This document shows positions 10,962-57,448 of a DNA stretch of 64,000 nucleotides, piece after piece (the stretch's first letter is position 1; the number at the start of each line of letters is the position of its first letter). The translations under genes and the position numbers were made by a program. Under the pieces are notes generated by a model. That model was given only the letters and a program-made list of their open reading frames with translations. It made no database searches and was not told where the DNA came from. The stretch lies in NCBI RefSeq assembly GCF_030013205.1, contig NZ_CP122648.1; one strand, given 5' to 3'. The stretch is from Escherichia coli (GTDB lineage Bacteria; Pseudomonadota; Gammaproteobacteria; Enterobacterales; Enterobacteriaceae).

Positions 10962-10972
10962 AGGGCGTTGCG

Positions 10973-11829: not shown

Positions 11830-11853
11830 GGTTACTGGACAAAGGGGGGCGCA

Positions 11854-12299: not shown

Positions 12300-12595
12300 G
12301 CACCATCAACCACCAGGAACTACGCGAACTGGCGACTGACCTGCAACGAATGGCAACGCATCAAAAATTACTGGCGTTTCGCGCAATGCTCTCGCCATCT
12401 GCCGTGTTGGCACTACTGGATGAGCTGGAGCACGCCAGAACCACAGCGCCAGCCATTCGCCTGACGCTCCATCATGAAATCGCTGATTTCTGTGCACCAC
12501 TGGGTTCACCTGGCGAACCGGAAACACCGGAAGCAATGCAGCGAGAGCTGCTGCAACGCATCGACAAGGTTTTTGATTTTTTCCTTAACCAGTAA
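12296..12595 (+). CDS. hypothetical protein
   Basis: 99-aa ORF. Confidence 0.45.
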   Translation: MSTINHQELRELATDLQRMATHQKLLAFRAMLSPSAVLALLDELEHARTTAPAIRLTLHHEIADFCAPLGSPGEPETPEAMQRELLQRIDKVFDFFLNQ

Positions 12596-12606
12596 GGGAT
12601 CGCAGC

Positions 12607-12810
12607 ATGAACAAAAAGACCTGGTTTCGCGCATACATGTGGGCGCTGGTATGCGTCCTCGTTTCTCTCATTCTGTATGCAGGACTCCTCCCCCGAATGA
12701 TTTCATCAGACAGCTCCTTCCTGGTATTGCTGGGCATTTTCATTGCCATGCTGTACCCGGCAGGCGTTGTTCGCCTTTTCAGTAAGTACATCAAGGAAAT
12801 CAAACAATGA
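12607..12810 (+). CDS. small two-TM membrane protein, partner of downstream SPFH protein
   Basis: 67 aa with two hydrophobic helices; stop overlaps the SPFH start. Confidence 0.5.
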   Translation: MNKKTWFRAYMWALVCVLVSLILYAGLLPRMISSDSSFLVLLGIFIAMLYPAGVVRLFSKYIKEIKQ

Positions 12811-13637
12811 AGAAATTCAAACTCTTTCAGATTATCCCTCTTTTTGCCGCCATCCTGCTGGTTGGTTGCGATCGTGTTGAGCCAGGTAATGTGGGCATCA
12901 AAGTCAACAAACTGGGCGACGACAAAGGCGTCGGTGAAGTGGTTGGTGTTGGCCGCTACTGGACTGGCTGGAATACCGAGGTTTACATCTTCCCGACCTT
13001 CAAACAAATGAAGACCTACGATGAGCCGTTCAGCTTCCAGATGAGTGACGGCACAACCATCGGCTATCACATCGGTGTGGCCTACAAGGTTGATCCATCC
13101 AAAGTTACTACAGTGTTTCAGACCTACCGCAAAGGCGTGGATGACATTACCGACACTGACCTGCGCCAGAAGATCGCCGATGCACTCAACCGACTGGCCA
13201 GCAAAATGACCACCGACAAATTTATCGACGGCGGGAAATCTGAACTACTGGATGCAGCTCTTAAAGACATTCAGGAGGAAATGACACCCATCGGTATTCA
13301 GGTAATGAGCCTCTCATATGTGGGTAAGCCGGAGTACCCGTCAACCGTTATCGACAGCATTAATGCCAAAGTCACGGCAAACCAGAAAACCCTGCAACGC
13401 GAACAGGAAGTCAAGCAACGTGAAGCAGAAGCCAACATGTTGCGCGCAGAAGCTGCCGGACAGGCTGATGCCATTCGCACAAAAGCCCAGGCTGAAGCCG
13501 ACGCCATTCGTTTACGCGGTGAAGCTCTGCGCCAGAATCCCGGCGTTATGGAGCTGGAAGCAATCAACAAATGGAACGGCACGCTGCCGCAATACATGAC
13601 CAGCAATACCGCTGTTCCGTTTGTTCCGGTGAAGTAA
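12807..13637 (+). CDS. SPFH/band-7 (prohibitin-like) lipoprotein
   Basis: Lipobox LLVGC after signal peptide; SPFH-like core and Ala/Glu-rich coiled-coil C-terminus. Confidence 0.75.
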   Translation: MKKFKLFQIIPLFAAILLVGCDRVEPGNVGIKVNKLGDDKGVGEVVGVGRYWTGWNTEVYIFPTFKQMKTYDEPFSFQMSDGTTIGYHIGVAYKVDPSKVTTVFQTYRKGVDDITDTDLRQKIADALNRLASKMTTDKFIDGGKSELLDAALKDIQEEMTPIGIQVMSLSYVGKPEYPSTVIDSINAKVTANQKTLQREQEVKQREAEANMLRAEAAGQADAIRTKAQAEADAIRLRGEALRQNPGVMELEAINKWNGTLPQYMTSNTAVPFVPVK

Positions 13638-13643
13638 TTAAAC

Positions 13644-13668
13644 CCGGCCAGTGAAAATCACTGGCCGG
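13644..13668 (+). terminator. 11-bp-stem hairpin after SPFH gene
   Basis: ccggccagtga-aaat-cactggccgg; a T-run follows about 12 nt later. Confidence 0.4.
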
Positions 13669-14004
13669 AGCAGTATCAGGATTTTTTAGTATGCCGTTCT
13701 CACAAAAAAACCGCTTGCCATGCCGCAATCAGTCAGGTTACATTTCCGCTGCACCTCATAAAACGGGTGCCGGGATTTCCACCCCGCTGACAACCAAAGC
13801 GCACAACCGCGCCAGCGGTTTTTTTGTGCGTACCGTATCGCCACGTCTTTTTCGCACACGAATTATGGTGGGGCGTATGGGGCCGACTTCGGTCGGGCCG
13901 GGTTCTTTGGTTGCCGGTTGTGGAAACCCTGTACGTCTCACCACCCCGAGTTTTCCACCTCTGGATGGTGAGTTTTCAAAACTTACAACCAAAGAGGCCA
14001 CACC

Positions 14005-14235
14005 ATGGCAAACCGCAAACAACAGCGCACATACGCTGCGCGTCGTCACATCCAGACTGAAATCAACCGCAGACTTTTCCGCGCATTCCGCGTCGCGCAA
14101 ATCATGCACATCAATATGCTGCATGAACGCAGTCACGCACTATCGAACAGCTATTCCGCCTCTGTTTTCAGCTATCTGGCGGATGATCTGCGCGAGCTTC
14201 AGCAGCTCATCCAGCAGCAAAACAAACTCCATTAA
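14005..14235 (+). CDS. hypothetical basic protein
   Basis: 76-aa ORF with AGAGG RBS. Confidence 0.4.
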   Translation: MANRKQQRTYAARRHIQTEINRRLFRAFRVAQIMHINMLHERSHALSNSYSASVFSYLADDLRELQQLIQQQNKLH

Positions 14236-14307
14236 TTCCTGTTCCGGGCCTTTCCTGCACCTTGCGGCGGGAGGCCTTCGCACATCTGTAACAAGAGGAG
14301 TGCCGCA

Positions 14308-14673
14308 ATGATTCTCGCCAACGACTTTCTTGAATACCTGCTCAACACAGAGCGTGATCTTGCCGTTCGCGTGCGTGACCGTTATGACATGTACCTGAAA
14401 TCCCTGCCTGTACCGCAGCTCGCTGACGGAAAGATTGTTATTGATGGCCGCTACATGATTGACAGCCACGAGGGAAATTACAGGCTTTACCGCATTGAAG
14501 GCGGCACCCCGTCCGTTATTGGCATTTACCAGCGCCCATCCTCTGCGATCGTCGATGTGATTGCAGACAGCATCCGCATCACACATCACTATGCCGACAC
14601 AGAAGACACCGTGCTGGAAATTCAGCGGCTGGCTACAGTCTGCCGCGACACCCTGAATGGCATGACGAAGTAA
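14308..14673 (+). CDS. hypothetical protein
   Basis: 121-aa ORF with AGAGGA RBS. Confidence 0.45.
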   Translation: MILANDFLEYLLNTERDLAVRVRDRYDMYLKSLPVPQLADGKIVIDGRYMIDSHEGNYRLYRIEGGTPSVIGIYQRPSSAIVDVIADSIRITHHYADTEDTVLEIQRLATVCRDTLNGMTK

Positions 14674-14679
14674 ATCACT

Positions 14680-14967
14680 ATGACAGCAGAGTACATCAGG
14701 GACTGGCAACAACCGCGCCACGCAGTGGGGCGTGAAGGAACGGGGATCCCTGCTCCTGAAGCGGTGGAAGGTGTCGCAACGTCACAGGCCGACATTATCG
14801 ACCGTTTTAATGCGCTGGAAACCCGCCATCAGCAGGACAGCCAGAAAATCACTTTACTGACCACAGAGCTGACAGCACTGAAGGAAAAACTGCGCACGCA
14901 GGACGGCGATCCGCAGAACCGGTTCACCGCAACGGGCGCAGCCTCCGATCAACTGGCTGACTTCTGA
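14680..14967 (+). CDS. hypothetical protein
   Basis: 95-aa ORF. Confidence 0.4.
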   Translation: MTAEYIRDWQQPRHAVGREGTGIPAPEAVEGVATSQADIIDRFNALETRHQQDSQKITLLTTELTALKEKLRTQDGDPQNRFTATGAASDQLADF

Positions 14968-14990
14968 TAAGACAAAGGAGCAAATTTTTT

Positions 14991-15254
14991 ATGAATCTGG
15001 TGATGTCAGATATTACCCGCAACAAGCTGGGTTGCTATATGGCGCAGCAGGCGTCGCTTAACAACATCCCGGTATCTGCACTGGTATCGCGATTTACCGT
15101 GGAACCCTCGGTGTCCGCCATTGCTGCCGCACTGCATGTGCACGGTGTGCAACGCGTGGAAATAATCGAACCCACACAGAATATGGCCATCAGCGACATA
15201 CAGGCGGCGCGCTGTGAGTCATTCACCATCAGCGAAGGTGGACGCAATGAGTAA
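14991..15254 (+). CDS. hypothetical protein
   Basis: 87-aa ORF with AAGGAG RBS; overlaps the gpI start by 8 nt. Confidence 0.45.
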   Translation: MNLVMSDITRNKLGCYMAQQASLNNIPVSALVSRFTVEPSVSAIAAALHVHGVQRVEIIEPTQNMAISDIQAARCESFTISEGGRNE

Positions 15255-15774
15255 TTCGCTGTTACCACCATCAGCCAGCAATTTCATGCGTTGTGCCGAA
15301 GCCGTCGGGACACGCATTACAGACATTCCGGTAGACCTCAACACGCTGTGGTCGCCGGATACCTGCCCGGTGCATCTGCTGCCTTATCTCGCCTGGGCAT
15401 TTTCCGTTGACCGCTGGGATCGCAACTGGCCGGAAGAGACAAAGCGACAGGTGATTCGTGATGCATGGCTGATACACCGACACAAGGGAACCATCAGCGC
15501 ACTGCGCCGGGCCATTGAGCCGCTGGGATATCTCATTCGTGTGTCTGAGTGGTGGGAGTTCGACGGCGAACCCGGAACATTCAAGGTTGATGTTGGCACG
15601 CTGGACAGTGGTGTGACCGAGGAAATGTATCTGGAAATGGAACGGCTGATTGCCGATGCCAAACCCGCAAGTCGCCACCTTATCGGCCTGAACATTATCC
15701 AGGACATTCCTGGCTATCTGTATACAGGCGGTGTGGTCTGTGATGGTGATGTTATTACTGTTTATCCCGGATAA
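15247..15774 (+). CDS. P2-like tail protein I
   Basis: ATG at 15247 (MSNSLLPPSAS...) with AGGTGG RBS; family motifs LWSPDTCP, LLPYLAWAFSVDRWD. Confidence 0.8.
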   Translation: MSNSLLPPSASNFMRCAEAVGTRITDIPVDLNTLWSPDTCPVHLLPYLAWAFSVDRWDRNWPEETKRQVIRDAWLIHRHKGTISALRRAIEPLGYLIRVSEWWEFDGEPGTFKVDVGTLDSGVTEEMYLEMERLIADAKPASRHLIGLNIIQDIPGYLYTGGVVCDGDVITVYPG

Positions 15775-15784
15775 GTGAGAAACA

Positions 15785-18442
15785 ATGAGCACGAAATTTA
15801 AAACCGTTATCACTACTGCCGGAGCCGCGAAGCTGGCAGCCGCCACTGTCCCCGGCGGGAAAAAAGTAACTCTGTCTGCAATGGCCGTGGGTGACGGTAA
15901 TGGCAAATTGCCGGTGCCGGATGCCGGTCAGACGAAACTGGTGCATGAGGTCTGGCGTCACGCTCTGAATAAAGTCAGCGTGGATAACAAGAATAAAAAC
16001 TATATCGTGGCTGAACTGGTTGTACCGCCAGAAGTGGGCGGCTTCTGGATGCGTGAGCTGGGTCTGTATGACGATGCCGGAACACTGATTGCGGTCGCTA
16101 ACATGGCGGAAAGCTATAAACCTGAACTCGCTGAAGGCTCCGGGCGCGCGCAGACCTGCCGCATGGTTATTATTGTCAGCAACGTGGCGTCCGTTGAGCT
16201 GAGTATTGATGCCAGCACAGTGATGGCGACGCAGGATTACGTCGATGACAAAATCGCAGAGCATGAGCAGTCCCGCCGCCATCCTGACGCCACGCTGACA
16301 GAAAAAGGTTTTACTCAGTTAAGTAGCGCAACAAACAGCACCAGTGAAGAGCTGGCGGCAACGCCAAAGGCAGTAAAAGCAGCCTATGACAATGCTGAAA
16401 AACGTATGCAGAAAGACCAGAACGGTGACGATATTCCAGATAAGGGCGCTTTTCTGGACAACGTTGGCGTTACCAGCCTGACGTTTATGAAAAACAATGG
16501 CGAAATGCCGCTTGATGCTGACTTGAATACATTTGGTCCCGTTAAGGCTTATCTTGGCATCTGGTCTAAAGCAACATCCACCAACGCAACACTGGAGAAA
16601 AATTTCCCGGAAGATAATGCTGTCGGTGTGCTTGAGGTTTTTGCAGCTGGCAATTTTGCAGGCACGCAACGTTTTATCACGAGAGACGGCAATGTATACA
16701 TGCGTAAACTCGCCAATAAGTGGAATGGCACTGATGGTCCGTGGGGCGTATGGCGTCACACTCAATCAGCTACCCGCCCTTTGAGTACGACTATAGACCT
16801 GAATACGCTTGGAGCCGCTGAGCATCTTGGTTTATGGCGTAACAGTAGCTCGGCTATAGCTTCATATGAACGCAATTATCCAGAGGAAGGCGGCTTTGCT
16901 CAGGGGACGCTTGAGATCCTCGAAGGCGGGAATTATGGAAGAACGCAACGTTATACCACTCGTCGTGGGAATATGTACGTTCGCTGCCTTGCGGCAAGCT
17001 GGGATGCATCAAATCCGCAGTGGGAACCGTGGTTAAGAGTCGGTCATCAGTCAGAGAGCCGTTATTACGAAGGTGATTTGAATGTTCTAACCGACCCCGG
17101 TATTTACAGTGTTACAGGAAAGGCGACAAACGGTCCGATGCTGGACGCTGCTGGGGCGACATTGCTTGGGATACTGGAAGTAATCAGGCGTTTTGATGGT
17201 GTATCTGTCTGGCAGCGTTACACAACCACAGGGAAATCAGAAACCACACAGGGGCGCACTTTTGAGCGCGTCTACGCCGGGAGCACATGGACCGAATGGC
17301 GAGAAGTGTATAACTCCTTTTCGTTGCCCCTGAATATGGGGATCGGTGGCGCAGTGGCAAAACTCACCAGCCTGGACTGGCAGACCTACGATTTTGTGCC
17401 GGGCAGTCTGATAACCGTTCGGCTTGATAACATGACCAATATTCCCGACGGTATGGACTGGGGCGTCATTGATGGCAACCTGATAAACATCGCTGTTGGT
17501 CCGAGTGATGATTCCGGTACGGGGCGCTCAATGCATGTATGGCGCAGCACTGTAAGTAAAGCGAATTACCGCTTTTTTATGGTTCGCATTTCAGGAAATC
17601 CGGGAAGCCGCACGATTACGACAAGACGTGTGCCAATTATCGACGAAGCTCAGACATGGGCGGCGAAACAGACATTCAGCGGTGGTCTTTCTGGCGAACT
17701 ATCCGGCAATGCTGCTACAGCAACAAAGCTGAAAACGGCAAGGACAATTAACGGCGTAAAATTTGACGGCTCGGCAAATATTGAAGCGTTTCCGCCAGGT
17801 GTTCCGCTGCCGTGGCCATCAGATACTGTGCCGTCTGGTTACGCCCTGATGCAGGGACAGACTTTTGATAAATCTGCATACCCGAAACTTGCAGTCGCTT
17901 ATCCGTCAGGCGTGATCCCGGATATGCGTGGCTGGACAATCAAGGGCAAACCCGCCAGTGGTCGGGCCGTATTGTCTCTGGAACAGGACGGCATTAAATC
18001 GCACACCCACAGTGCCAGCGCATCCAGTACGGATTTGGGTACGAAAACCACATCGTCGTTTGATTACGGTACTAAATCAACGAATAACACAGGTGCACAT
18101 ACCCACAATGTATCTGGTACTGCAAATAGTGCTGGCGCACATACTCATACCGTTCCATTAAGGAGACCAAACAGTGGCGGTATGAATTTCGACTGGCTGG
18201 ATGGTGCATCAAGTGGCACGGTGGTGGGGAATGGAACTGTGCCTTCTTCTGGCGCACATACCCACTCAGTATCAGGTACCGCTACAAGTGCTGGGGCACA
18301 TGCACACACTGTTGGTATTGGCGCTCATACGCACTCTGTTGCGATTGGTTCACATGGACACACCATCACCGTTAACGCTGCTGGTAACGCGGAAAACACC
18401 GTTAAAAACATCGCATTTAATTATATTGTGAGGCTTGCATAA
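15785..18442 (+). CDS. P2-like tail fiber protein H
   Basis: 885-aa ORF; conserved N-terminus [21 protein letters not shown]...; C-terminal His-rich repeats (GAHTHxV). Confidence 0.85.
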
Positions 18443-19059
18443 TGGCATTCAGAATGAGTGAACAATCACGTACTGTAAAAATTTATAACCTGCTGGCCGG
18501 AACTAATGAGTTTATTGGTGAAGGTGACGCATATATTCCACCTCATACAGGGCTGCCAGCCAATTCTACAGATATCGCCCCACCGGAAATTCCTGCTGGC
18601 TTTGTGGCAGTTTTTAACAGTGAAAATGAATCGTGGAATATTGTTGAAGACCATCGTGGTAAAACGGTCTATGACGTGGCATCGGGGGACGCGTTGTTTA
18701 TTTCTGAACCCGGACCGCTACCAGAGAATGTCACCTGGTTGTCGCCAGCAGGGGAGTATCAGAAGTGGGACGGCGTATCCTGGGTGAAGGATGAGGAAGC
18801 AGAAAAACTGTTTCGGATACGGGAAGCGGAAGAGAAAAAGGCAAGGTTGATCCAGGAAGCAACAGATAACATCGCAATTCTGCAGGATGCAGTTAATCTT
18901 GAAATAGCAACAAACGAGGAAAATTCACAACTGGATTCCTGGAGAAAATACAGAGTATTAGTGAGTAGAATTGACACCAGTACAGCTCCGGATATCGTAT
19001 GGCCAGAGCTGATGAATCAGGGTTATGTGCGGGAGGACGAGCAGATAACTTCAGACTGA
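18442..19059 (+). CDS. tail fiber assembly protein (gpG-like)
   Basis: 205-aa ORF immediately after H with overlapping stop/start. Confidence 0.7.
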
Positions 19060-19586
19060 AATTTAGTGATGAATGTTGAATCATCTGGAATATCATGCAA
19101 TACCAATGCATGAGCACCTATTGTGACATTGTTTCCTATACGCACTTTGCCACCAAGAATGGTGGCATTACAACCAATGGTCACATTATGTCCTATAACA
19201 ATATCCATATCATTAAAATCACCACGCAGCCCAATAGTTACCCCTGGTTTTATTGAACAATTTTCACCGATTGTTACTTTGTGACCGATAACAACACTGT
19301 TGAGATAAGAAATATCAAAGCCTTTCCCTATATTTACAGTTAAAGGGACTGTTACATTATATTTATCAAGAATGAAACGTTCTATTTTCCCCGCAATCTT
19401 CCGACAGCATCCGCCTTTATCAAAAAGGTATTTGGCTATGCGCCACCAAAATAAATAACGAACTCTTCTATGTTTTATTGCGCGAACAATTGCCTTTCGC
19501 CAGGAGAAAGGACGCTCGCTACCGATTACTTCATAGTGAATACAATCTTTAAGTTCATTAATATTCATATCTCTATTATTCAGCAT
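19023..19586 (-). CDS. hexapeptide-repeat (LbH) acetyltransferase, AT-rich cargo gene
   Basis: Repeated [LIV]-G-x-x-x-x motifs ([22 protein letters not shown]...); AT-rich; sits at the P2 Z/fun position. Confidence 0.75.
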
Positions 19587-19756
19587 AAGATAATCATGTG
19601 ACCAATTATTGTAATAATTTTAATGGTATGTTTCTACTGGCTATCCAGCGTGTCTGATGTCCAGTAACAAATCGTTAACACTGGTGCAATCAAATGGTGA
19701 GTGTTAAGACTGGCCACTTATTACCAGGTATGAGGGTATGAGTGGCCAGCATTAAA

Positions 19757-20251
19757 TCAGAACAGCCCTTTAACTGAACTGGCCGCGCTGTTAAGGGATG
19801 ATGTCACTTTATCTTTGAAGCCGGACAGCATATCGCTGAACGATGAGGATTGCAGGCGCTCCCGCAAATCCTCATCACAGCGTTCAAGGGTCAGTGAAAA
19901 TTCTATCTTTTTCGCCTTACCGTAGCGATCAAACTCGGAACGGGTCGTATTCGTTTCGGTCAGGACATACATGCCGTAAATCTGCCCGACGCCATCAATA
20001 AGAGGCCAGGGGCGTCCTGTATACGCCTGCGTGGTCAGCAGCGACAGCGACACTTCGCCACCTGTAATTTCAGGATAAAGCACACCAGAAAGAACGATGC
20101 GATCATCACCTGCACCGATATACTGCCAGCTTGCTGAACGGTTAACGCGTTCATTTTTCACATGCCGCCAGCTTTTGTTTTGCTGTAACTGCTGATGCGG
20201 CAGCGTGCGCAGCTCAAAAACAAACATGCCGTAGATCATCATCATGGCCAT
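19757..20251 (-). CDS. P2-like tail protein U
   Basis: 164-aa ORF following T on the minus strand. Confidence 0.7.
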   Translation of the reverse strand: MAMMMIYGMFVFELRTLPHQQLQQNKSWRHVKNERVNRSASWQYIGAGDDRIVLSGVLYPEITGGEVSLSLLTTQAYTGRPWPLIDGVGQIYGMYVLTETNTTRSEFDRYGKAKKIEFSLTLERCDEDLRERLQSSSFSDMLSGFKDKVTSSLNSAASSVKGLF

Positions 20252-20257
20252 GACTCC

Positions 20258-43338: not shown

Positions 43339-43426
43339 GGTGAGGTGTCCGAGTGGCTGAAGGAGCACGCCTGGAAAGTGTGTATACGGCAACGTATCGG
43401 GGGTTCGAATCCCCCCCTCACCGCCA
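43339..43426 (+). tRNA. serW: tRNA-Ser (anticodon GGA)
   Basis: 88-nt GGTGAGGTGTCCGAGTGG...TTCGAATCCCCCCCTCACCGCCA with long variable arm and GGA in the anticodon loop. Confidence 0.93.
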
Positions 43427-43472
43427 TATTCAAAGAAGAGCTCGTACGAAAGTAGGGGCTTTTTTTTCGCAT
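43408..43472. repeat. direct repeat copy 1 (tRNA-Ser 3' end plus terminator)
   Basis: aatccccccctcaccgccatattcaaagaagagctcgtacgaaagtaggggcttttttttcgcat. Confidence 0.7.
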
Positions 43473-43587
43473 ATTGCACACACCGGGGGGATGAGAAGCC
43501 CCGACCGGGGTTCGACAACTGGCGCAGCCAGTTGGACAGACCACGAACACAGTGAGTGGGCTGCCCGCAGGGCGAGCGAAGCGAGTC

Positions 43588-43651
43588 AATCCCCCCCTCA
43601 CCGCCATATTTAAAGAAAAACTCGTACGAAAGTACGAGTTTTTTTTCGCAT
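43588..43651. repeat. direct repeat copy 2 (duplicated tRNA-Ser 3' end plus terminator)
   Basis: aatccccccctcaccgccatatttaaagaaaaactcgtacgaaagtacgagttttttttcgcat, near-identical to copy 1. Confidence 0.7.
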
Positions 43652-46196: not shown

Positions 46197-46517
46197 TCAG
46201 GCTTTTTCTAGCGTACACAGCAATGGATGCTCATTCTCCCTCGCGTACTTGTTCACCATCGCCACTTTGGTTTCTGCAACCTCGGCGGTAAAGACTCCGC
46301 AAATGGCCTTCCCCTGGTAGTGAACAGCGAGCATCAATTGCGTTGCACGTTCTACATCATAAGAAAAGAATTTTTGTAACACGTCAATAACAAACTCCAT
46401 CGGAGTGTAATCATCATTGACTAATATCACTTTATACATAGATGGCGGTTTTAGCGCGTCGCGAACTTTTTCTTCCGCCAGTTGATCAAAGTCCAGCCAG
46501 TCGTTCGTTTTACCCAT
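46197..46517 (-). CDS. clpS: Clp adaptor ClpS
   Basis: 106-aa [46 protein letters not shown]... Confidence 0.95.
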
Positions 46518-46690: not shown

Positions 46691-46715
46691 ATTAACTACA
46701 CCATTAACTACACCG
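46691..46715. repeat. island-end repeat attaactacaccattaactacaccg (tandem 12-mers)
   Basis: Near-identical 25-mer at 57068..57092; both followed by CGAACAA-type motifs. Confidence 0.6.
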
Positions 46716-47303
46716 CTTCACGAACAATATCGAACAACCGCGAACAAAGATCAACACGCTTTAATCATTATCATTTTCCGGCTATCCGTCATGAAGCTGG
46801 TGGATGATCTGCGTGGTGATTTCCACCATTCAGAGCAGGGGCGGTCATCATGACCATGCCATAACAAAAACCCCATATTCGTGGTTTTTCTGTGTCGGGG
46901 CTATTCTGCTGTTGCCGTGCTGGTGGATATTCTCCGGTATGCGGCTCCCCATATCGGCATCAGGCCCACCAGCGTGAAGCGTTTTTCATTTTTCGCGGGT
47001 ATAAAAAATCGATGGGGCGGGCAGTCCTGAAGACGTCAGGGTACGGAGATTTGACCCGCCCCTCCCTGTGCATGAGCACAATAAGTAACCGAAGGCGGAA
47101 TTCCGCCCTCGGTACTTACATATGAGAAACGATATTTCTTCCACCGATACCCTTTATTTGGGTATTGCGAGTAAGCCCCAAAATCTGGGTGTTACTCTTA
47201 CTACCCAAACTACGGGTAGTTTCCGTAGTTTCATGGTCGAGTTGCAAATCTGCAACTCACCCACCAGCCAACGCAATTTTGCGTTATCGGGAATATCAGC
47301 AAG

Positions 47304-47591
47304 TTACCGCCGCAGTCGTTCCGGCTTCTTCCACTGGTAAGTATTTTTCGCGCTCTCCCTCCGTTGTTGAGAACGGCGACGGTATGCCAGCAACTCAAGG
47401 ACTCTGGTTCGTATGTTGCGCATATCCACGCCGTTAAGCTCAATACCATCACGGCGCATCACCTCAGCAACAACACGCGCGTAATTTTCAGCGGTGACTG
47501 TATCCGGCTGCGCGGCCTGTTCGTCAGCCAACTGGCTGATTCCACCAGCACAGCGGATTAATCGCAGTATTTCAGATTCGGTCATTATCAT
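47304..47591 (-). CDS. hypothetical protein downstream of terS-like gene
   Basis: 95-aa ORF, ATG overlaps the upstream stop. Confidence 0.5.
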   Translation of the reverse strand: MIMTESEILRLIRCAGGISQLADEQAAQPDTVTAENYARVVAEVMRRDGIELNGVDMRNIRTRVLELLAYRRRSQQRRESAKNTYQWKKPERLRR

Positions 47592-48073
47592 GCCTGTTTT
47601 GCGACCTCATTCACTACGTCATTTTTTACCATCCGGCTGATAATCTGATTACACAAATCGTCAATAATTGACTGCACTCTGTTTACTGCCATCGGTTTAA
47701 GCCCGGCATCACGTGCCAGAATATTGGGGAGTTTTGCCAGTTCCTCGCTTACGATTTCCCCCCATATAGCCATCTCTTTTCGCACATCATCGGCGGGTAT
47801 GAGTTGCGCCGTTTCCTGTTCGAACTTGAGGCGTTCACGTTCGGACTGATACCAGGCCTTACGGTCTTGTGGCTCCATTTCTTCCAGTGATGCCGGAACG
47901 GGAAGATCAAGAAAACAGGTCAGAATGTCAGTCACCCGATAGAGTTTCAGCTTGTCATGCCCTCCGGCTGGCTGGATGTTTTTCAGCCTTGCCGCCGCAG
48001 TCTGACGACATATTCCCGCTATCGCCGCCAGTTGATTAATGTTCAGCATCAGATTTTTCAGTTCTCGATCCAT
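47588..48073 (-). CDS. Nu1-like small terminase subunit / packaging-redirection (Rpp-like) protein
   Basis: ATG at 48073 (MDRELKNLMLNINQLAAIAGICRQTAAARL...), N-terminal wHTH plus coiled coil resembling lambda Nu1; the track start at 48160 is TTG. Confidence 0.55.
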   Translation of the reverse strand: MDRELKNLMLNINQLAAIAGICRQTAAARLKNIQPAGGHDKLKLYRVTDILTCFLDLPVPASLEEMEPQDRKAWYQSERERLKFEQETAQLIPADDVRKEMAIWGEIVSEELAKLPNILARDAGLKPMAVNRVQSIIDDLCNQIISRMVKNDVVNEVAKQA

Positions 48074-48226
48074 ACCCGCTCCAGAATGTTTTAAACATGC
48101 ATCTTGCGAACAACTTTCAGAAGAGGTCAAAAAATGCGCTATATGTTGAGCATAAAACAAGCAAAATTAACATGCCAAAAATAAAAATACTTAAAATTCA
48201 ATACAATATGAAGATGATGATGACGA

Positions 48227-48322
48227 ATGAAAATGCAAAAACTAGCCTTTTTCCGCGCCGCTCCCGCCCCGTGGCAGACCACTCCACCGGGAGGACCCGT
48301 AAAAAAGGCGGCTGTCGCCGCC
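48227..48322. repeat. conserved intergenic element A (about 72 nt shared with element B, then a GC hairpin)
   Basis: About 85 percent identical to 50761..50832; hairpin ggcggctgtcgccgcc at 48307..48322. Confidence 0.6.
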
Positions 48323-50760: not shown

Positions 50761-50858
50761 ATGAAAATGCAAAAACCAGCCTTTTTCCGCGACGCTCCCG
50801 CCCCGTGGCAGGTCACTACACCGGGAGGACCCATAAAAAAGCCGGATTGCTCCGGCTT
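50761..50858. repeat. conserved intergenic element B (copy of element A core, different terminal hairpin)
   Basis: atgaaaatgcaaaaaccagcctttttccgcg...ccgggaggaccc then gccggattgctccggc hairpin with T-run on the minus strand. Confidence 0.6.
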
Positions 50859-50872: not shown

Positions 50873-51295
50873 TTAAAACGGTATGTTATCCCCGTACGGA
50901 TCATCATTTCCCGCCTGTTGTTTTGCTCTGCTCAGTGCATCAGTAGCCTGCCCCTGTTGGCCTTTTTTGCCGCCCGGTCGCGCCGTTCTCGCACTGATTA
51001 CGCTGTCTGCGATAACCTGCCAGCCCTGCCGCGTCTCCCCGTTCTGTCCGGTCCACTGGCTCACCTGCATGTTACCCGCCACGCTCAGGAGTTCACCCTT
51101 GCGGTGCTTTGCCAGTGCTTCGGCCTGTCTGCCAAACGCCAGGACGGATAACCACATCGTCGCCGTTCCGTCATCTGCCTGGCTGCACGGAAGTGGGACC
51201 GCCATACTCGCCATCGTCATTTGTGTACCCTTGCTGGTGGTCTTTAACTGCGGGTCAGCCACCAGCCGCCCGTAAGCCGCTATCTGTGCTGTCAT
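50873..51295 (-). CDS. single-stranded DNA-binding protein (SSB-like)
   Basis: 140 aa, OB-fold-like N-terminus and acidic C-terminal tail DDPYGDNIPF like the SSB DDDIPF tail. Confidence 0.65.
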   Translation of the reverse strand: MTAQIAAYGRLVADPQLKTTSKGTQMTMASMAVPLPCSQADDGTATMWLSVLAFGRQAEALAKHRKGELLSVAGNMQVSQWTGQNGETRQGWQVIADSVISARTARPGGKKGQQGQATDALSRAKQQAGNDDPYGDNIPF

Positions 51296-51537
51296 GCTGT
51301 CTGCTCTCCGGTTTTAACGTTGATGGTTGTCACCTGTTCCGCTTCGGCAATCTCCCGTTCTGTCAGCGTGGCAAAGTTTGCAGCTGCCGTTGTCATGAAT
51401 GAGCTAATCAGTTCGGGATGTGCTTTCGCATATCCTTCCCCGGCGTTGCGGTCGATGATTTTTATCGACACCCTTAACCAGTGTTCCGTCAAATCAAGGG
51501 CGTGCGATTGTGATTTTTTTGTGTGCTTCGCTGTCAT
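51292..51537 (-). CDS. hypothetical protein
   Basis: 81-aa ORF overlapping the SSB start. Confidence 0.45.
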   Translation of the reverse strand: MTAKHTKKSQSHALDLTEHWLRVSIKIIDRNAGEGYAKAHPELISSFMTTAAANFATLTEREIAEAEQVTTINVKTGEQTA

Positions 51538-51583
51538 AGGCTTTATCTCACAGCAGTAAATTAAAATTTTTGCGTTTTAACCC

Positions 51584-51812
51584 TTCACCTGTTCACCTTT
51601 TGATATTTTATCTTTTAATTCATAATGTTAAGGGGTGAACAGTTTCACAAAAACTATTCACCAACTGTTCACCACTGTTCACCCTTGAAGCTCAATAAAC
51701 AATCAAAAAGGTGAACAGTGAATAGTTTGGTGAACAGTTCATAAATAACTGTTCACCCTATAACATACTGATACAAAAGATATTTATGACAGGGTGAACA
51801 GTGGTGAACAGT
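51584..51812. repeat. iteron array: at least 9 copies of TGTTCACC/GGTGAACA in both orientations (P4 ori/crr-like)
   Basis: Octamers counted at 51590, 51634, 51666, 51676, 51710, 51729, 51750, 51793, 51803, with TATTCACC variants; immediately downstream of the alpha-like gene. Confidence 0.7.
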
Positions 51813-51824
51813 TATTCCATAAGT

Positions 51825-53642
51825 TTAATTTTTGCTATCGTCATTAGTGACCGATACACATGATGGCATCCAGTCTTCTGATTCCTCCGTCAGTGTCACG
51901 TTTGAACGCAAACCGTGCTTCGTTTTCCGTTTCATATACTCCCTGCCATATTCCGCCATTGCCCCCGGCATATCTTTACCGAAGCGCGTCAGTGTTACAG
52001 GTTTACCAAACCCATGTGCCCTCATATAAGCCAGATAGGCATGATAGAGATACCTGCGTGGGCTGAATGGCACAATTTCAGCATTACCCACTAACAGGCC
52101 ATCACACATTACCGACGCCATGAGATAGCCGCAGAAGTCCACCAGCGAATCCCCCTCTCGCTTTATCGCCAGTGCTTCTTCAGATTTCTGCTGCTCATAT
52201 AACAGGCGTCTGGCTTCGTCCTGGTCAGCAAACCGTGTAAGCAGATGGCGAATCACTACCGCCAGCTCACCTTCTATTTTTTCCGCCAGCATTGGATCGC
52301 GTTCGTTCTCCGGTACAACTTCCGAAAAATTGAATATCACCCGACGACGTGAGATCCCCCCGCTGCGGTCACTGAATGACATGGCGTTATTGTTAACCGC
52401 CAGCACTACTGCCGGAATACGCGTTGAGTAGGGGGCTTTGTGTTTCGGGTCAATTGCCACCTTGTCACCGCCTGTAATGGCCTTAATTCCTGCCCCATCA
52501 CCAGCGTAGCGGGTCATATCCGGCATGATAATCAGCGAAAAGCCAACCACTAACGCGCGTTCCCTTGCATCTTCCAGCGCCTTCATGCTTGCCGATACTG
52601 TGTTGGCCTTACCCGCCAGCATGGTGCAAATCTCCGCCATCACGCTTTTACCACTTCCCCCTGGACCTGTTACCTCAATGAATAACTGCCAGTCGTACCG
52701 GTTCGCCAGCACCATGAATAATGCAGCCAGTACGCGATCCGCCTTGCGGTCATTCTCAGCCACCGAACGGCGTAACCACTTCCAGAAATTCGGCGCATGT
52801 GTTGCCAGCGTTTCCCCCTCTGCTGGTGGGCTGAAAGGTAATTCACTGGCAATTAACAACCAGTCGTTTTTGTTATGCTCCCGAAAATTACCTGTTCTGG
52901 TATCAAATACCCCGTTACTGAATCCAATCAGGTTACGGGCTGTATTCCCCATAACAGGCAAACTTAACTTCATGGTATCGACCGCCGATTTAATGGCGTT
53001 CTGCGAATAGCTGATCTCCGCATCAATGAAAATCTGTGCCATAGCTCGCTGTAATTCTTTATCCTGTACTGGCTCCCATACAACGCCGTTGTAATGGTGA
53101 ACAGTGTCAGAGTCAGCATGAATCGCCAGTTCACCGCCATAATGTGCCAGGAGAACTTCGCCGCGTTGACTTGCTCCCATCTGGTTAAGCGCCAGTGATG
53201 AAGCGTTATCGTCTTTTACCCGCTCTTTTTTCTTTACAGGCAGTTCAACTACCTTTTTCTTTTCCGCCTGCTCTGCCCGTTCACGTTCCAGATATTCGCG
53301 CCAGTTCTCCCGTTTCTGGCTGTGCATTCCTTCAGGGTAATAATCAGCATCCCTGACACCTGCCGCTGCCAGTTTCTGCCCGATGGTATTAACAAGCCCC
53401 GGACGCAATAACCCCGCCTGGTAGAGACGCACGCGATAGCGTCCGTCCGGTACGATTTGCAGGTTGTCCAGTTCGGCAAGTTGTTGCTCTCCAAGCCAGA
53501 CAGGTGGCACGTTATCGCCAGCCAGTCGCCCGTCCTGTTCCTGCCACTGCTTCGCATGTGCCCACGCATCACTACCCGCAAAAATGATGACTTCCGTCAT
53601 TTTGTCACGCGGCTGGTGTTTTAAATTTGGCGCTTTTTTCAT
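51825..53642 (-). CDS. P4 alpha-like replication protein (D5_N / SF3 helicase, primase-helicase family)
   Basis: Walker A GPGGSGKS; ATG at 53642 with GGAGAG RBS; the track start at 53657 is GTG. Confidence 0.8.
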   Translation of the reverse strand: MKKAPNLKHQPRDKMTEVIIFAGSDAWAHAKQWQEQDGRLAGDNVPPVWLGEQQLAELDNLQIVPDGRYRVRLYQAGLLRPGLVNTIGQKLAAAGVRDADYYPEGMHSQKRENWREYLERERAEQAEKKKVVELPVKKKERVKDDNASSLALNQMGASQRGEVLLAHYGGELAIHADSDTVHHYNGVVWEPVQDKELQRAMAQIFIDAEISYSQNAIKSAVDTMKLSLPVMGNTARNLIGFSNGVFDTRTGNFREHNKNDWLLIASELPFSPPAEGETLATHAPNFWKWLRRSVAENDRKADRVLAALFMVLANRYDWQLFIEVTGPGGSGKSVMAEICTMLAGKANTVSASMKALEDARERALVVGFSLIIMPDMTRYAGDGAGIKAITGGDKVAIDPKHKAPYSTRIPAVVLAVNNNAMSFSDRSGGISRRRVIFNFSEVVPENERDPMLAEKIEGELAVVIRHLLTRFADQDEARRLLYEQQKSEEALAIKREGDSLVDFCGYLMASVMCDGLLVGNAEIVPFSPRRYLYHAYLAYMRAHGFGKPVTLTRFGKDMPGAMAEYGREYMKRKTKHGLRSNVTLTEESEDWMPSCVSVTNDDSKN

Positions 53643-53938
53643 TTCGGCTCTCTCCACGCGGCAATCATGTTTTTCAGTTCCTGCAGTTTTTTATCCACAT
53701 CCACACGTGACACATGGTTATTTCTGGAAGTCGGGATTTCCCGCCGGAATCTGCTAATAAAGATCTCCACGTTCAGCGAACTATGAAATGAATAGCCATC
53801 ACGAATAAAATACACACGGTCAAACATCAGTTCTTTTACCGTTACTCTGTTACCGTTCTTATCCAGATAAATAGCGCCGGGGATAATTTTGGGGTGTGCA
53901 TAACCGCTGGCAGTCAAGCCAGATAAATATGTTCTCAT
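53639..53938 (-). CDS. hypothetical protein
   Basis: 99-aa ORF, overlapping start/stop with the alpha-like gene. Confidence 0.45.
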   Translation of the reverse strand: MRTYLSGLTASGYAHPKIIPGAIYLDKNGNRVTVKELMFDRVYFIRDGYSFHSSLNVEIFISRFRREIPTSRNNHVSRVDVDKKLQELKNMIAAWREPK

Positions 53939-53944
53939 GATTAT

Positions 53945-54265
53945 TTATCCCCGATTTGAATCAGTATTCGCTTTCTTTATGGCATTTAATGCATCTGTGG
54001 CATTTTCAATGGTGCACCGTAACGAAATATCAAACTGCCCAAGCATTGCCAGTAACAAACCGATATTACCCATATCAATGCGCATGGCCTTTTCGTCATA
54101 GTCCTCATTTTCTGACGCATGCCACATCAGGCTACCAATTGACGCAACAGCCATTGATATATTGTCAGTAGCCCCATCAGCAGCGGAATAAACCTTTTTA
54201 GCAATATCATGCTCACAGTTAAAATGCGGATTAATCAGGTACTGGTAATTTGACATATCAGGCAT
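53945..54265 (-). CDS. hypothetical protein
   Basis: 106-aa ORF. Confidence 0.45.
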   Translation of the reverse strand: MPDMSNYQYLINPHFNCEHDIAKKVYSAADGATDNISMAVASIGSLMWHASENEDYDEKAMRIDMGNIGLLLAMLGQFDISLRCTIENATDALNAIKKANTDSNRG

Positions 54266-54461
54266 GGCACACCCCCTGACGAATACGGGCGGCGAATACC
54301 ATCACGTAGCCAGCCGGGGATTGCTGGCGTGCTTCCTGTTCACTGGTGGCCTCAATGGTAATCACGCGCGGTTGTGCCGTGCTCAGGGCGATAAAACGCC
54401 AGATGTATTTATTCAGGTTGTACGAGTCCCGCCCTTGCGGGTGTCTGGTATAATTTCTCAT
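54258..54461 (-). CDS. hypothetical small protein (real part of a spurious 302-aa track ORF)
   Basis: Internal ATG at 54461 with GAGG RBS (MRNYTRHPQGRDSYNLNKYIW...). Confidence 0.3.
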   Translation of the reverse strand: MRNYTRHPQGRDSYNLNKYIWRFIALSTAQPRVITIEATSEQEARQQSPAGYVMVFAARIRQGVCHA

Positions 54462-54540
54462 AGCTGCCTCGATACTGTTGCTATCGTTGGTGGTTAGACG
54501 CCCTGCATGTGTGCCACCACTGCGGGGCGTTGTTGCTTGG

Positions 54541-54630
54541 TGCATCGCACCATTCGTTTTTAACCTATCAGCAAGTGAATCGCACTTCAAGCCTTTCTCT
54601 GAAATTTTTTTTGTGTATACTGAATCGCAC
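54541..54630. promoter_or_regulatory. three direct repeats TG(C/A)ATCGCAC plus a TATACT -10-like box upstream of the RHH gene
   Basis: Copies at 54541, 54576 and 54621; TATACT at 54616..54621. Confidence 0.4.
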
Positions 54631-54651
54631 CAACTTAGAGAGGATTCAGTA

Positions 54652-54831
54652 ATGGCAACAGGTTCAACAAATAATAAGTCGCAACAGTTAAATGCCAGAT
54701 TCCCGCATGATGTTGTTGCAGACTTAGAAAAAAATTTAGATGAAGGTGAAAGCAAGGCGCAATTTATAGTTACTGCCGTTAAAGGCGAGATCAAACGCCG
54801 CCAGCGCCGCAAGGCCAAAGAGCAGGAGTAA
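54652..54831 (+). CDS. ribbon-helix-helix (Arc/CopG-like) DNA-binding protein
   Basis: 59 aa; N-terminal beta-strand-like LNARFPHDVVADL; GAGAGG RBS. Confidence 0.55.
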   Translation: MATGSTNNKSQQLNARFPHDVVADLEKNLDEGESKAQFIVTAVKGEIKRRQRRKAKEQE

Positions 54832-54873
54832 CCATCACCAGCGCCGTGGTGTGAGTAACTACGGCGCATTGCT

Positions 54874-55062
54874 ATGCAGGACAACACAATGACCGATAAA
54901 GAATTGACCAAAACATTATCACCGGCACGGAAAAGACGGCGCAGAAAGATAGAGCATGAATCAGAAAGATTCGCGCCATGTGCTTTTGCTCTTGAGAAAT
55001 TCCTTAAAGAGCACAGGAAAAAGCTCTCGTTGCAAACCTTGGAACGAACCAAATCTGACTGA
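54874..55062 (+). CDS. hypothetical small basic protein
   Basis: 62-aa ORF followed by hairpin ggcgaccgcccccggtcgcc with T-run. Confidence 0.3.
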   Translation: MQDNTMTDKELTKTLSPARKRRRRKIEHESERFAPCAFALEKFLKEHRKKLSLQTLERTKSD

Positions 55063-55176
55063 TCACATTGCCCACCAGCCGCAAATGTGGCATTGTTGGT
55101 GATGCGTTCAAGTTTAGTGTGTATCCATTGGCGACCGCCCCCGGTCGCCTTTGTTTTATATGTCATATGCTCCCCT

Positions 55177-55386
55177 TTACGCTGCCTTGCCTGAATTAAT
55201 GCGATCCCGGCTTTTAACCCATTCCATAACCTCGGACAGCAGCCAACCTACAGAACGACCGCCCAGATTACGGCGTGACGGGAAATTCCCTTTTTTCTCC
55301 AGTTCATAGCGTGTAGTGCGACACACTCCAGTTAACTTACGACATTCATCCTCACGGATTACGCGATCTTCATTTATTTCACGCAT
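55177..55386 (-). CDS. alpA: AlpA-family transcriptional regulator
   Basis: 69 aa, MREINEDRVIREDECRKLTGVCRTTRYELEKKGNFP... typical AlpA/Xis HTH. Confidence 0.8.
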   Translation of the reverse strand: MREINEDRVIREDECRKLTGVCRTTRYELEKKGNFPSRRNLGGRSVGWLLSEVMEWVKSRDRINSGKAA

Positions 55387-55805
55387 ACAAAAACCTACAT
55401 AAAAAATTACGTATATAAACTTTTCTCTTAGCTGTAGATATATGAGATCGGATATTACTTAGATTCTTTTTTCACCTCTTAAATTAAAAACACAACCTTG
55501 CTAAAGGCTTTGTTCGCTAAGGTTCGTAGAAGCTCGTTAGTGTTTAAAATCGTGTCACGAGTTTTTAAGCGATGCAACAAAAAATGTCGTTACTTGGCAT
55601 TACGCTTGAATTATCTCATTAAAAACAAATAGATAAACCATCAAGTGTTGGAACAATCAAGAAACAGAGAATAAAAGTTCAGAAGAAGACATTCCAATTT
55701 TTTGATGGTTGACATATATAAAGCGAAGATATTTGCAGATATTTTCCGATATTCTACGATTTATTCACGGCTGTAATCTCTTAAAGAAAAAACAGCCGTA
55801 ATTTG

Positions 55806-57053
55806 TCAAGAATTTTGGGGGTAAATTCGCGGGGTCATAACAACGATTTTTTCATCATTGTTCTGGAGAAGCTCGAGACGGTCTACCCATAGATTAAGAG
55901 CATCACGTTTTGCATCAAGATAACGGGAGTGGTTATAGACTCGTTGCATCCCCGGCATCTGGTGGGCGGTAAGCTGCTCGACAATATGCGGATCCACGCC
56001 TAAATCGTTCAGCATGGTTGTAAATGTGTGCCGGATGTCATGCAACGACCAGGGGGCTTGATTAATGCGTCTGTGTGCCGTTCTTCCGTACTCTGCTACG
56101 GATGATTGCCCTTTCAGTTCTCCAAGCAATAAGCCCGTGTGCCTGTTCTTCTCCACCAGCTTCATGACAAACGGCAAGATCGCTTCCGGTATTGGCCTGA
56201 ATATTGCTACCTTCGTTTTGCTGTGTTCTTTCGGCACAGTCCAGAGCATTTCTTTAAAATCCCATTCCTGAACCTCGGAGCGTCTTAGCTCAGTGGTACG
56301 GCATCCAAAGACAATCAGAAGGCGAATTAAGGCGCTGTAGTACGGCGGGAAAATTTTTTCATCCAGTGCGCGGAGTAGCTCGCCAAGCTCCTTGTTTGTT
56401 AGCACTCGCTCGCTTATTTCTGCTTTTTTTCCCACATCACCTACGACCATATCATCAAGAACGTTACTGACGGCGTAGCGACGTTTACGGCAGTACTTAA
56501 GCGCCTGCTTGCATACCTGCAACAAAAAGCCGGCTGATACCGGATTACGCTTAGCAAGCTGGTCAAAACAGGCCAGCCAGTGGCGTAACTCGCATTTATC
56601 CAGCGGCATAGCACCAATCTGGCTGATTATGTGCTTATTGATCCGGCTTTTCAGTGATTCGTGGTCAGTGCGCTTTTCCTTCGCGTATGACTCAAGCCAG
56701 TAAGTGATCGCGTCCTTAACCGTTACAGGTGCTAACGCTTCCTGCACTGTGTGATTAAGCTCATGGCGTGGATTTTTCCCCTCCGCCAGCCAGGCGCGAC
56801 ACTGTGCCGCTTTTTCTCTGGCTGCTTTCAGGCTCAGATCGGGATAGTTGCCCAGTCTCAGGCGTTCCGGTGATACCTGCCTGCCAGTTCCGGCCCTGTA
56901 AGTGAAATACCAGGTTAACAGGCCATTGGTTGAATGCCTTACGCTAAGGTTGCCACCATCATTAAAAAAGGTGTTTTTTGTGGTTGGTGATCCGCTTAAT
57001 TTTCGTAAAAGAGTGTCGCTAAGTCTATGAATTGCCCTGCTCATGTTTCGCAT
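55806..57053 (-). CDS. int: tyrosine integrase (P4-type)
   Basis: 415 aa with catalytic-region motifs (HDIRHTFTT, YNHSRY); at the island end next to cspD. Confidence 0.9.
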   Translation of the reverse strand: MRNMSRAIHRLSDTLLRKLSGSPTTKNTFFNDGGNLSVRHSTNGLLTWYFTYRAGTGRQVSPERLRLGNYPDLSLKAAREKAAQCRAWLAEGKNPRHELNHTVQEALAPVTVKDAITYWLESYAKEKRTDHESLKSRINKHIISQIGAMPLDKCELRHWLACFDQLAKRNPVSAGFLLQVCKQALKYCRKRRYAVSNVLDDMVVGDVGKKAEISERVLTNKELGELLRALDEKIFPPYYSALIRLLIVFGCRTTELRRSEVQEWDFKEMLWTVPKEHSKTKVAIFRPIPEAILPFVMKLVEKNRHTGLLLGELKGQSSVAEYGRTAHRRINQAPWSLHDIRHTFTTMLNDLGVDPHIVEQLTAHQMPGMQRVYNHSRYLDAKRDALNLWVDRLELLQNNDEKIVVMTPRIYPQNS

Positions 57054-57067: not shown

Positions 57068-57092
57068 ATTAACTACACCATTGACTACACCG
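57068..57092. repeat. island-end repeat attaactacaccattgactacaccg
   Basis: 24 of 25 identical to 46691..46715; 15 bp beyond the integrase start. Confidence 0.6.
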
Positions 57093-57448
57093 TGCATCGT
57101 ACAAGGGCAAACAGCGACGAACAAGGGCGAACAAGAAAAACGAAATTTTCCTTTATAATCATAGCAATAAATGAGATAGATACACCACGACGAACACCCG
57201 CGAACACTAACTGATAAATAACTATCATCTATCGTTGGCATCAGCGACATCTGTCACATTCCTGTCAATAGCGTTAACTGCTTCAAATTTTTGATTCATA
57301 CCTGCCCCCTGGCCCCTGTCAAATGCTTGACGGCTCGCCCTAATTCTCTAAATTGTATTTCTAGAGTTGACGAGGTTTTGAACAGCCCCCTCTCTGACCC
57401 CGGTTTATTCCATCTTACTTGTATAAGATTTGCGAAGGATGTCGAAGC

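Follow-up and report, generated by a model that had tools for sequence, protein, structure and literature searches.

Among phage-inducible chromosomal islands (PICIs), those of the cos type bias packaging either by carrying the cos site of their helper or by making an Rpp protein that alters the DNA specificity of the helper's small terminase subunit (TerS). We analysed a 64-kb stretch of an Escherichia coli chromosome (64,000 nt of contig NZ_CP122648.1, hereafter the window), in which a ~10.4-kb island of the EcCICFT073 family is seated between clpS (46197-46517) and cspD (flanking genes as annotated in a 99.9% identical genome) and ends in two overlapping open reading frames (ORFs) of 161 and 95 amino acids. 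The longer one encodes a TerS homolog of the DUF1441 class (hereafter the satellite TerS), and the shorter one occupies the position that the large terminase subunit (TerL) has in phages of this class. We argue that the satellite TerS is a mosaic that may enter the helper terminase through mixed oligomers, with the 95-residue gene as a separate gene of the island backbone, and for this explanation as a whole we consider a probability of about one half to be appropriate.

Comparison with described systems

The RppA and RppC proteins of the EcCICFT073-type cos PICIs (PMC6739421) are encoded in the same slot, i.e. past the capsid gene, behind a cos site in sense orientation and ahead of a terminal gene of 93-95 codons, and like the satellite TerS they combine a TerS-type winged helix-turn-helix (HTH) with a helical C-terminal domain whose end is unlike that of the helper TerS. 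They differ from it in that no sequence similarity is detectable, in helper class (Nu1 TerS for Rpp, DUF1441 TerS for the window island), and in size and target: Rpp is 30-40 aa shorter than the helper TerS and reads a cosB unlike the phage's, whereas the satellite TerS is near helper length and is preceded by a prophage-identical cosB. The TerS of DUF1441-type phages (with head modules of the Gifsy-2/mEp460 type) likewise lies directly downstream of cos and has the same predicted fold; the satellite TerS departs from it in being followed by the 95-residue gene and not by TerL, in the absence of the acidic tail, and in being encoded without TerL, portal or tail genes. A literature search found no described PICI of the DUF1441 type.

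The pac-type Staphylococcus aureus pathogenicity islands (SaPIs) likewise set a satellite TerS homolog, TerS(S), beside a small satellite-specific protein, Ppi, and are the source of the idea that the two ORFs of the window form a two-component module. However, TerS(S) reads a distinct pac site, whereas the satellite TerS of the window would share the DNA specificity of its helper, and, unlike Ppi, the EcCICFT073 ortholog of the 95-residue protein (c1505) shows no interference. This ortholog is likewise the last gene of its island, but there it is separated from rppA by ~280 bp and an inverted lambda-type cos (cos2), where in the window the gene overlaps the terS stop.

The satellite small terminase

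Both ORFs were found as the sequence-only reading of the window had described them (48073-47588 and 47591-47304, joined by an ATGA overlap) and are real genes and not chance ORFs, the 95-residue protein having about 1000 homologs. The start codon of the first one is ATG 48073, preceded by GGAG at 6-9 nt, and its stop is TGA 47590-47588; a mechanical ORF list runs the frame back to TTG 48160, but its homologs begin at ATG 48073. Profile comparison with terminase small subunits supported the assignment made in that reading, since the 161-residue protein matches Pfam DUF1441 (PF07278) with 123.3 bits (cut-off 35.1, E = 9.5e-36) and PHROG 141, annotated as 'terminase small subunit', with E = 3e-56. 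The TerS proteins of the lambdoid phages Ayreon, mEp460, phi458 and vB_EcoS-606R10 are 63-70% identical to it, and those of VT1-Sakai, Gifsy-2 and Fels-1 39-48%. The AlphaFold2 model (mean predicted local distance difference test score, pLDDT, of 81) reproduces the layout foreseen from the letters, a winged HTH (residues 9-55: strand 9-11, helices 12-19 and 23-29, wing 37-46, helix 47-55) and then helices over residues 68-150, the first of them long (68-89) and those of residues 94-150 forming a domain. Foldseek against the PDB placed MerR-type winged-HTH proteins and 6hn7_B (the lambda TerS fragment in complex with RppC) on top, with no match at E < 0.1 and none significant.

The label 'Nu1-like' that had been attached to this protein holds only as distant homology. 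Thus the PHROG profiles of the two classes, phrog_141 (DUF1441) and phrog_57 (Nu1), match each other reciprocally over most of their length (E = 4e-7 to 8e-10), but the protein itself has no match to Phage_Nu1 (PF07471) with E up to 0.1 admitted, nothing significant came out of the PDB by either sequence or profile search (neither lambda Nu1 nor RppC), and similarity to RppA was not detectable (BLASTP E = 7.6; hhalign probability 0.9%). As regards genomic setting, in DUF1441-type phage genomes terS comes just after cos and is succeeded by a 700-aa GpA-type TerL, gpW, the portal and a fusion of ClpP-like protease and capsid, with TerL directly behind the homologous TerS in Ayreon, vB_EcoS-606R10 and one E. 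coli prophage. The gene of the window is in the same way directly downstream of a cosQ/cosN/cosB-like region (48074-48320) that has homologs in the cos regions of phages and prophages; no GpA-type TerL follows, and the 95-residue ORF stands there instead, which agrees with the earlier proposal that a protein of no recognisable fold has taken the place of TerL.

An alignment of 35 family members, 6 of the satellite type (161-162 aa) and 29 of the phage type (160-177 aa), separated the two types only by the C-terminal third. Over codons 1-65 the nucleotides of the window terS are 100% identical to those of its counterpart in an E. coli prophage (L014) that has TerL, portal and capsid genes downstream; identity drops over codons 70-96 (codons 1-96 still match), is 61% over codons 97-145 and, in the tail, amounts to 19% of amino acids, the C-terminal 65 residues of the satellite TerS being only ~50-60% identical to phage TerS. 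From cosQ to the terS ATG the first cos copy of the island is also nearly identical to this prophage. In a second island (L017/L018) the 5' half of terS is 100% identical to that of Ayreon, and the 3' half is 93-100% identical to that of the window. Across 5426 complete E. coli genomes, which served for all counts of E. coli genomes given here, the satellite-type 3' half (codons 97-161) was present in 194, in 192 of them at an identity of at least 95%. The net charge of the tail is +1 or 0 in all six satellite-type sequences (+1 in the window) and -2 to -8 in all 29 of the phage type, i.e. an acidic tail is common to all phage-type members aligned and is missing from the satellite TerS. At 161 aa, as against 163-164 aa in the helper, the protein is not shortened: its acidic tail is swapped out, and the invariant core motif L..LP.IL.RD...P..V.RVQ.IIDD is kept.

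Taken together, these alignments show that satellites repeatedly acquire cosB and the predicted DNA-binding half of TerS from different helpers and retain a private, tail-less C-terminal domain. We infer that the DNA specificity of the satellite TerS would be that of the helper; on this assumption it could not act in the manner of Rpp, through a different cosB, and any satellite-specific effect would have to come from the C-terminal domain (by oligomerisation or by contact with TerL). The sequence-only reading had pointed out that homologs of this kind in cos-type PICIs redirect the helper terminase to the cos site of the island; for the satellite TerS, redirection to a different cos site is contradicted by a DNA-binding half and a cosB identical to those of the prophage.

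The terminal 95-residue gene

Orthologs 74-87% identical to the 95-residue protein follow RppA, Nu1-like and DUF1441 genes, the products of which have no mutual BLASTP similarity. In EcCICFT073 (L013) the capsid gene c1499 is succeeded by the decoration gene c1500, genes for a 137-aa protein and for RppA (144 aa), a lambda-type cosN in inverted orientation, a 93-aa gene (c1505, WP_000133413.1; 74% identical to the window protein) and phoQ; in Nissle 1917 and the islands L005-L007 a 180-aa protein of the Phage_Nu1 family takes the place of RppA, followed by an inverted cos and a terminal gene that is 78-87% identical. More distant orthologs, with identities of 47% and 37%, are the last genes of islands that have podovirus-type internal virion protein genes. 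The alleles of the gene do not track the type of TerS, since the C-terminal 60 residues of the window protein (DUF1441 type) are also those of the L006 protein (Nu1 type), and L017 (DUF1441 type) carries the variant of CFT073 and Nissle. Three types of upstream protein, and alleles that do not track them, place the 95-residue gene in the backbone of the PICI family, and it is, on these comparisons, not a partner specific to the satellite TerS.

In the sister islands of the RppA and Nu1-like types, 160-280 bp and an inverted cos lie between the upstream gene and the ortholog (~280 bp in CFT073), and the gene is coupled to terS in the window only because this spacer and the inverted cos are absent. 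All four DUF1441-type islands examined (the window island, L001, L017 and L018) have the same junction, GCATGATAATGACC. In the 99.9% identical genome, RefSeq starts the second gene at ATG 47585 (93 aa), 2 nt past the TerS stop, and translational coupling would be compatible with either start, 47591 or 47585. The dedicated two-component pair envisaged in the sequence-only reading is thus disfavoured by a gene that stands behind three kinds of protein in the TerS position, does not co-vary with them and is usually uncoupled.

Published assays on EcCICFT073 bear on the function of the gene. When c1499 to c1507 were cloned singly in pBAD18, lambda plaques were reduced only by c1503 (rppA) (Fillol-Salom et al. 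2019, PMC6739421), and the cat-marked island that stood for the wild type when transfer by lambda and phi80 was assayed, entered in the strain list as c1504-07::cat, still transfers (PMC6739421). By our own mapping of the primers on CFT073 (which is our reading and not a statement of those authors), the c1505 clone (SalI to HindIII, sense) spans 8317-8690, i.e. the whole 93-aa ORF with 57 nt upstream, and the c1504-07::cat allele removes ~8103-9001, which comprises the inverted cos and the 93-aa gene. From the assays and this mapping it follows that the ortholog is neither a lone interference factor nor needed for transfer with lambda and phi80 as helpers, and the role in island transfer or helper interference that had been suggested for the 95-residue protein finds no support within the range of these two phages.

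The sole match of the 95-residue protein is PHROG 1561, annotated as of unknown function; Pfam, NCBIfam and the PDB gave none, and a profile search retrieved only unnamed relatives. The AlphaFold2 model (pLDDT 71) has helices at residues 5-15, 34-47 and 54-84 and a basic tail, in which the C-terminal Y-x-W-KKPERLRR is invariant and kept even at 47% identity, and fold searches with this model against the PDB and the viral BFVD returned nothing with E < 0.6. The ratio of nonsynonymous to synonymous substitution rates (dN/dS) is 0.23-0.41 in six pairwise comparisons that extend to orthologs 47% identical. The gene is carried by 1041 of the complete E. coli genomes (~19%), in up to six copies each, as compared with 191 that have it together with the 3' half of the satellite terS, and makes up a narrow family: 36 clusters, mostly fragments, among 1.8 billion representatives, a single locus (in Cedecea) in a scan of 100,044 species genomes, and one weak match among 50,697 phage records (Klebsiella phage P12620-1, in an uninformative context). 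Its composition (charge and predicted helices) suggests that the protein is probably a nucleic-acid-binding accessory or regulatory factor.

Several other identities were considered for this protein. BLASTP against the TerL of Ayreon, of whose N-terminus it might be a remnant, gave nothing, and no homology was found to the 94-aa 'late gene regulator' beside the cos of Ayreon. Matches to ankyrin (DARPin), SEA-repeat and TPR proteins in the PDB and among the representatives are summed weak repeat matches and were considered spurious, and a BrxA match in PADLOC (E = 0.008, 14 bits) was taken as noise.

Proposed mechanism and alternative explanations

In the explanation that we favour, the satellite would parasitise lambdoid phages with heads of the mEp460/Ayreon/Gifsy-2 type, which have a DUF1441 TerS, a GpA-type TerL and a ClpP-capsid fusion. 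The winged-HTH half of its TerS and the preceding cos are exchanged with helper prophages by recombination, and the protein would bind the same cosB as the helper TerS. It would join the helper terminase at cos, most likely in mixed oligomers by way of the DNA-binding and linker region, which is identical in both proteins, and would then shift packaging through its altered C-terminal domain, with the satellite favoured and the helper disfavoured. The 95-residue protein would be a separate, small helical backbone factor with a basic tail, not required for packaging. Mixed oligomers are suggested by the lambda system, in which the DNA-binding domain of TerS dimerises and RppC hijacks TerS through mimicry of that domain; since Rpp proteins mimic it and are without the TerL-binding end, mixed complexes with the helper TerS are, by analogy, favoured.

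Several points weigh against this explanation. Mixed oligomers are argued from the analogy to lambda Nu1 and to Rpp, a DNA specificity equal to the helper's could not by itself discriminate the island cos from the helper cos (which leaves the source of the packaging bias unexplained), and a satellite TerS that is nearly full length and has kept the core residues may bind TerL directly. As regards the second gene, the assays on EcCICFT073 used lambda, phi80 and an island of the RppA type, not the DUF1441 helper class; the satellite 3' half co-occurs with the 95-residue gene in 191 of 194 genomes, as a functional pair would; and the suggested nucleic-acid role is read from charge and predicted helices.

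Direct recruitment of TerL is a strong rival, which we regard as possible, if doubtful on balance. It amounts to straight replacement as by the SaPI TerS(S): the satellite TerS would form its own oligomers, bind cos and recruit the helper TerL directly through its C-terminal core, with no part for the helper TerS. The near-full length of the protein and the retained core motif fit such a role, the TerL of the helper belongs, like that of lambda, to the GpA family, and SatelliteFinder regards terS homologs of PICIs as packaging-redirecting. In lambda Nu1, however, TerL is bound by the C-terminal end (Murialdo and Feiss), and the satellite protein has lost the acidic tail of 29 of 29 phage-type sequences; moreover, a DNA-binding domain and cosB that are the helper's confer no new specificity, and with an identical DNA-binding and linker region mixing with the helper TerS would be hard to avoid.

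We consider it unlikely that the two genes are a dedicated two-component module, in which, for instance, the basic tail of the 95-residue protein would mimic the N-terminus of TerL and sequester the acidic tails of the helper TerS (in the manner of Ppi), the tail-less satellite TerS escaping. The charges are complementary (+9 for the tail of the 95-residue protein, +4 for the N-terminus of TerL, about 0 for the satellite TerS tail, as against the acidic phage tails), the ATGA overlap is kept in all DUF1441-type islands examined, the genes occur together in nearly all genomes with the satellite half, and the 95-residue family is almost absent from phages. Against this stand the closely related proteins behind RppA and Nu1-like genes and those of the podovirus-type PICIs, the spacer and inverted cos that intervene in the sister islands, alleles that do not co-vary with TerS type, the absence of sequence similarity to TerL, and the published assays, in which over-expressed c1505 did not interfere with lambda and transfer of the c1504-07::cat island took place. 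A variant that we hold to be slightly less probable still is that the 95-residue protein would be a general decoy of helper terminase assembly, its basic tail mimicking the N-terminus of GpA-type TerL and capturing the acidic tails of the helper TerS, with Rpp and the tail-less DUF1441 variant having shed the tail for immunity; if this were true, a Ppi-like function would exist in a fifth of E. coli genomes and would have been missed since the gene was assayed alone and only against lambda. Least probable is that terS is decaying captured phage DNA kept by its adjacency to cos and the 95-residue ORF a roleless passenger. PICIs often capture late genes, and in EcCICFT073 neither the genes for capsid and decoration protein nor the c1504-07 region gave a phenotype, but the terS reading frame is intact, its satellite half is conserved in nearly all carriers despite repeated replacement of the 5' half, and the dN/dS of the 95-residue gene is low out to distant orthologs.

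The island suggests a third arrangement among cos-type PICIs, in which the cos and the DNA-binding domain of the helper are refreshed by recombination with different helpers around a private, tail-less C-terminal domain. Should the satellite act through that domain, TerS oligomerisation or TerL docking would be a target of molecular piracy. To our knowledge, no structure of the DUF1441 TerS family has been solved, and the recombining terS genes represent a natural domain-swap set for dissecting this family. Of the unexplained genes of this PICI family, which ~19% of complete E. coli genomes carry, the 95-residue gene is the most conserved.

cos sites

The 94-nt cos core is present twice in direct orientation (with CACGGGGCGGGAGCG in each copy), and the two copies flank the capsid gene. 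A full phage-like cosB lies only behind copy 1, the flank of copy 2 resembling just the proximal part of cosB, and a promoter scan found a weak sigma-70-like site (48178-48149) within the cosB-like region. EcCICFT073 has two functional cos sites (PMC6092414). In its sequence (L013) the lambda-type cosN sites at 7559-7570 (+) and 8298-8309 (-) are inverted and lie on either side of rppA, and in the Nissle 1917 island (L012) those at 14215-14226 (-) and 13348-13359 (+) are inverted around the Nu1-like gene. Islands L005-L007 carry a lambda-type cosN (8152-8163, +) upstream of the Nu1-like gene and an inverted mEp460-type cosN (9028-9041, -) between that gene and the 93-aa gene, and therefore combine the cos sites of two helper families in one satellite.

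In the deposited sequence of Ayreon (L004), the halves of the cos core are at 377-410 and 561-709, ~150 bp apart, and overlap an annotated 'late gene regulator' coding sequence, unlike in the islands and in other phages, where they are contiguous; this split may have arisen in assembly or annotation, as an artefact of the ends of the genome.

Island architecture and chromosomal setting

All genes of the island are on the minus strand. It has the core set of Gram-negative PICIs (as defined by the EcCICFT073 family and SatelliteFinder), namely integrase, AlpA, primase with replication origin, capsid and terS in one orientation within ~10 kb, and its gene order is that of the CFT073 and Nissle 1917 islands. 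By this gene content the element is a cos-type PICI of the EcCICFT073 family, with the 161-residue gene in the Rpp slot, and the PICI setting recognised in the sequence-only reading is thereby borne out. No TerL, portal, head-tail connector, HNH, tail or lysis gene was found among its ORFs; as capsid-forming PICIs (cf-PICIs) are defined by their own TerL, portal, head-tail connectors and HNH, the island is not one of them. It also encodes an Ash/Icd-like region and a DUF4222 protein, and a 69-aa gene and the ClpP-capsid fusion stand between the gene for the single-stranded DNA-binding protein (SSB) and the terminal ORF pair (Table 1).

Table 1. Features of the island and of its packaging region (window coordinates)
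Feature	Position	Strand	Evidence or remark
att-like direct repeats	46691-46756; partner 57068-57133		bound the ~10.4-kb island
Palindromic hairpin with T-rich tail	47088-47113	-	190 bp after the stop of the 95-aa ORF
95-aa ORF (93 aa in RefSeq), last gene of EcCICFT073-family PICIs	47304-47591	-	phrog_1561, E = 1e-52
Gene junction GCATGATAATG	47585-47593	-	read from sequence; TerS stop TGA and ATG 47591 form ATGA; second in-frame ATG 47585
Satellite small-terminase homolog, 161 aa, DUF1441 class	47588-48073	-	PF07278, phrog_141
cosB-like region, cosN to terS start	48074-48226	-	nearly identical to prophage L014; 77% identical to phage 606R10
cos copy 1 (cosQ-like and cosN)	48227-48320	-	94-nt repeat; matches phage and prophage cos regions
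Predicted 12-nt cosN GGGCGGGAGCGG	~48269-48258	-	presumed placement, from alignment to lambda cos
GC-rich hairpin GGCGGCGACAGCCGCC, then TTTTTT	48307-48322	-	sequence; directly 3' of capsid gene; stem called on + strand by scan
ClpP-like prohead protease/major capsid fusion, 637 aa	48330-50243	-	NCBIfam NF045540, E = 7e-272; same late operon, upstream of the pair
cos copy 2, direct	50761-50854	-	88% identical to copy 1
SSB	50873-51295	-	PICI core
Rest of PICI core (SSB to integrase)	50873-57053	-	
ori-like iterons	51609-51826	-	repeats
D5_N/Pox_D5 primase	51825-53657	-	PICI core
AlpA	55177-55386	-	PICI core
Integrase	55806-57053	-	PICI core

The ClpP-capsid fusion is 57% identical to the 652-aa protein of Ayreon and has ~29 aa fewer in the linker between protease and capsid, a shortening that may bear on capsid size. 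Of the two hairpins, the one behind the capsid gene is a probable intrinsic terminator ahead of cos, and the one behind the 95-residue gene probably marks the end of the transcription unit. The ~550 bp between the stop of that gene and the att-like repeat (46757-47303) contain no convincing ORF and include a near-perfect palindrome, ACCGAGGGCGGAATTCCGCCTTCGGT. Nested inverted and direct repeats of GGTGAACAGT (51609-51826) lie directly 3' of the primase gene, where PICIs have their replication origin. In L017 (1-12489) two islands of the same PICI family are in tandem in one genome, a second series of integrase, AlpA, DUF4222 and primase genes beginning right behind the 93-aa gene of the first.

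No helper prophage with a DUF1441 TerS was found within the 64-kb window. A degraded prophage spans 7300-24000, with an integrase (7523-8530), a Band 7 protein, an Ash-like protein, a tail fibre (15785-18442), a tail-fibre assembly protein and a tape-measure-like protein (20258-23101), and with the RNAs isrK (13751-13825), C4 antisense RNA (13861-13948) and STnc130 (7314-7448). Just upstream of clpA, a tRNA gene is followed by an RtT element (43339-43606), and a type I-F CRISPR-Cas locus is found between that tRNA and clpA in L001, from another strain that has the same island.

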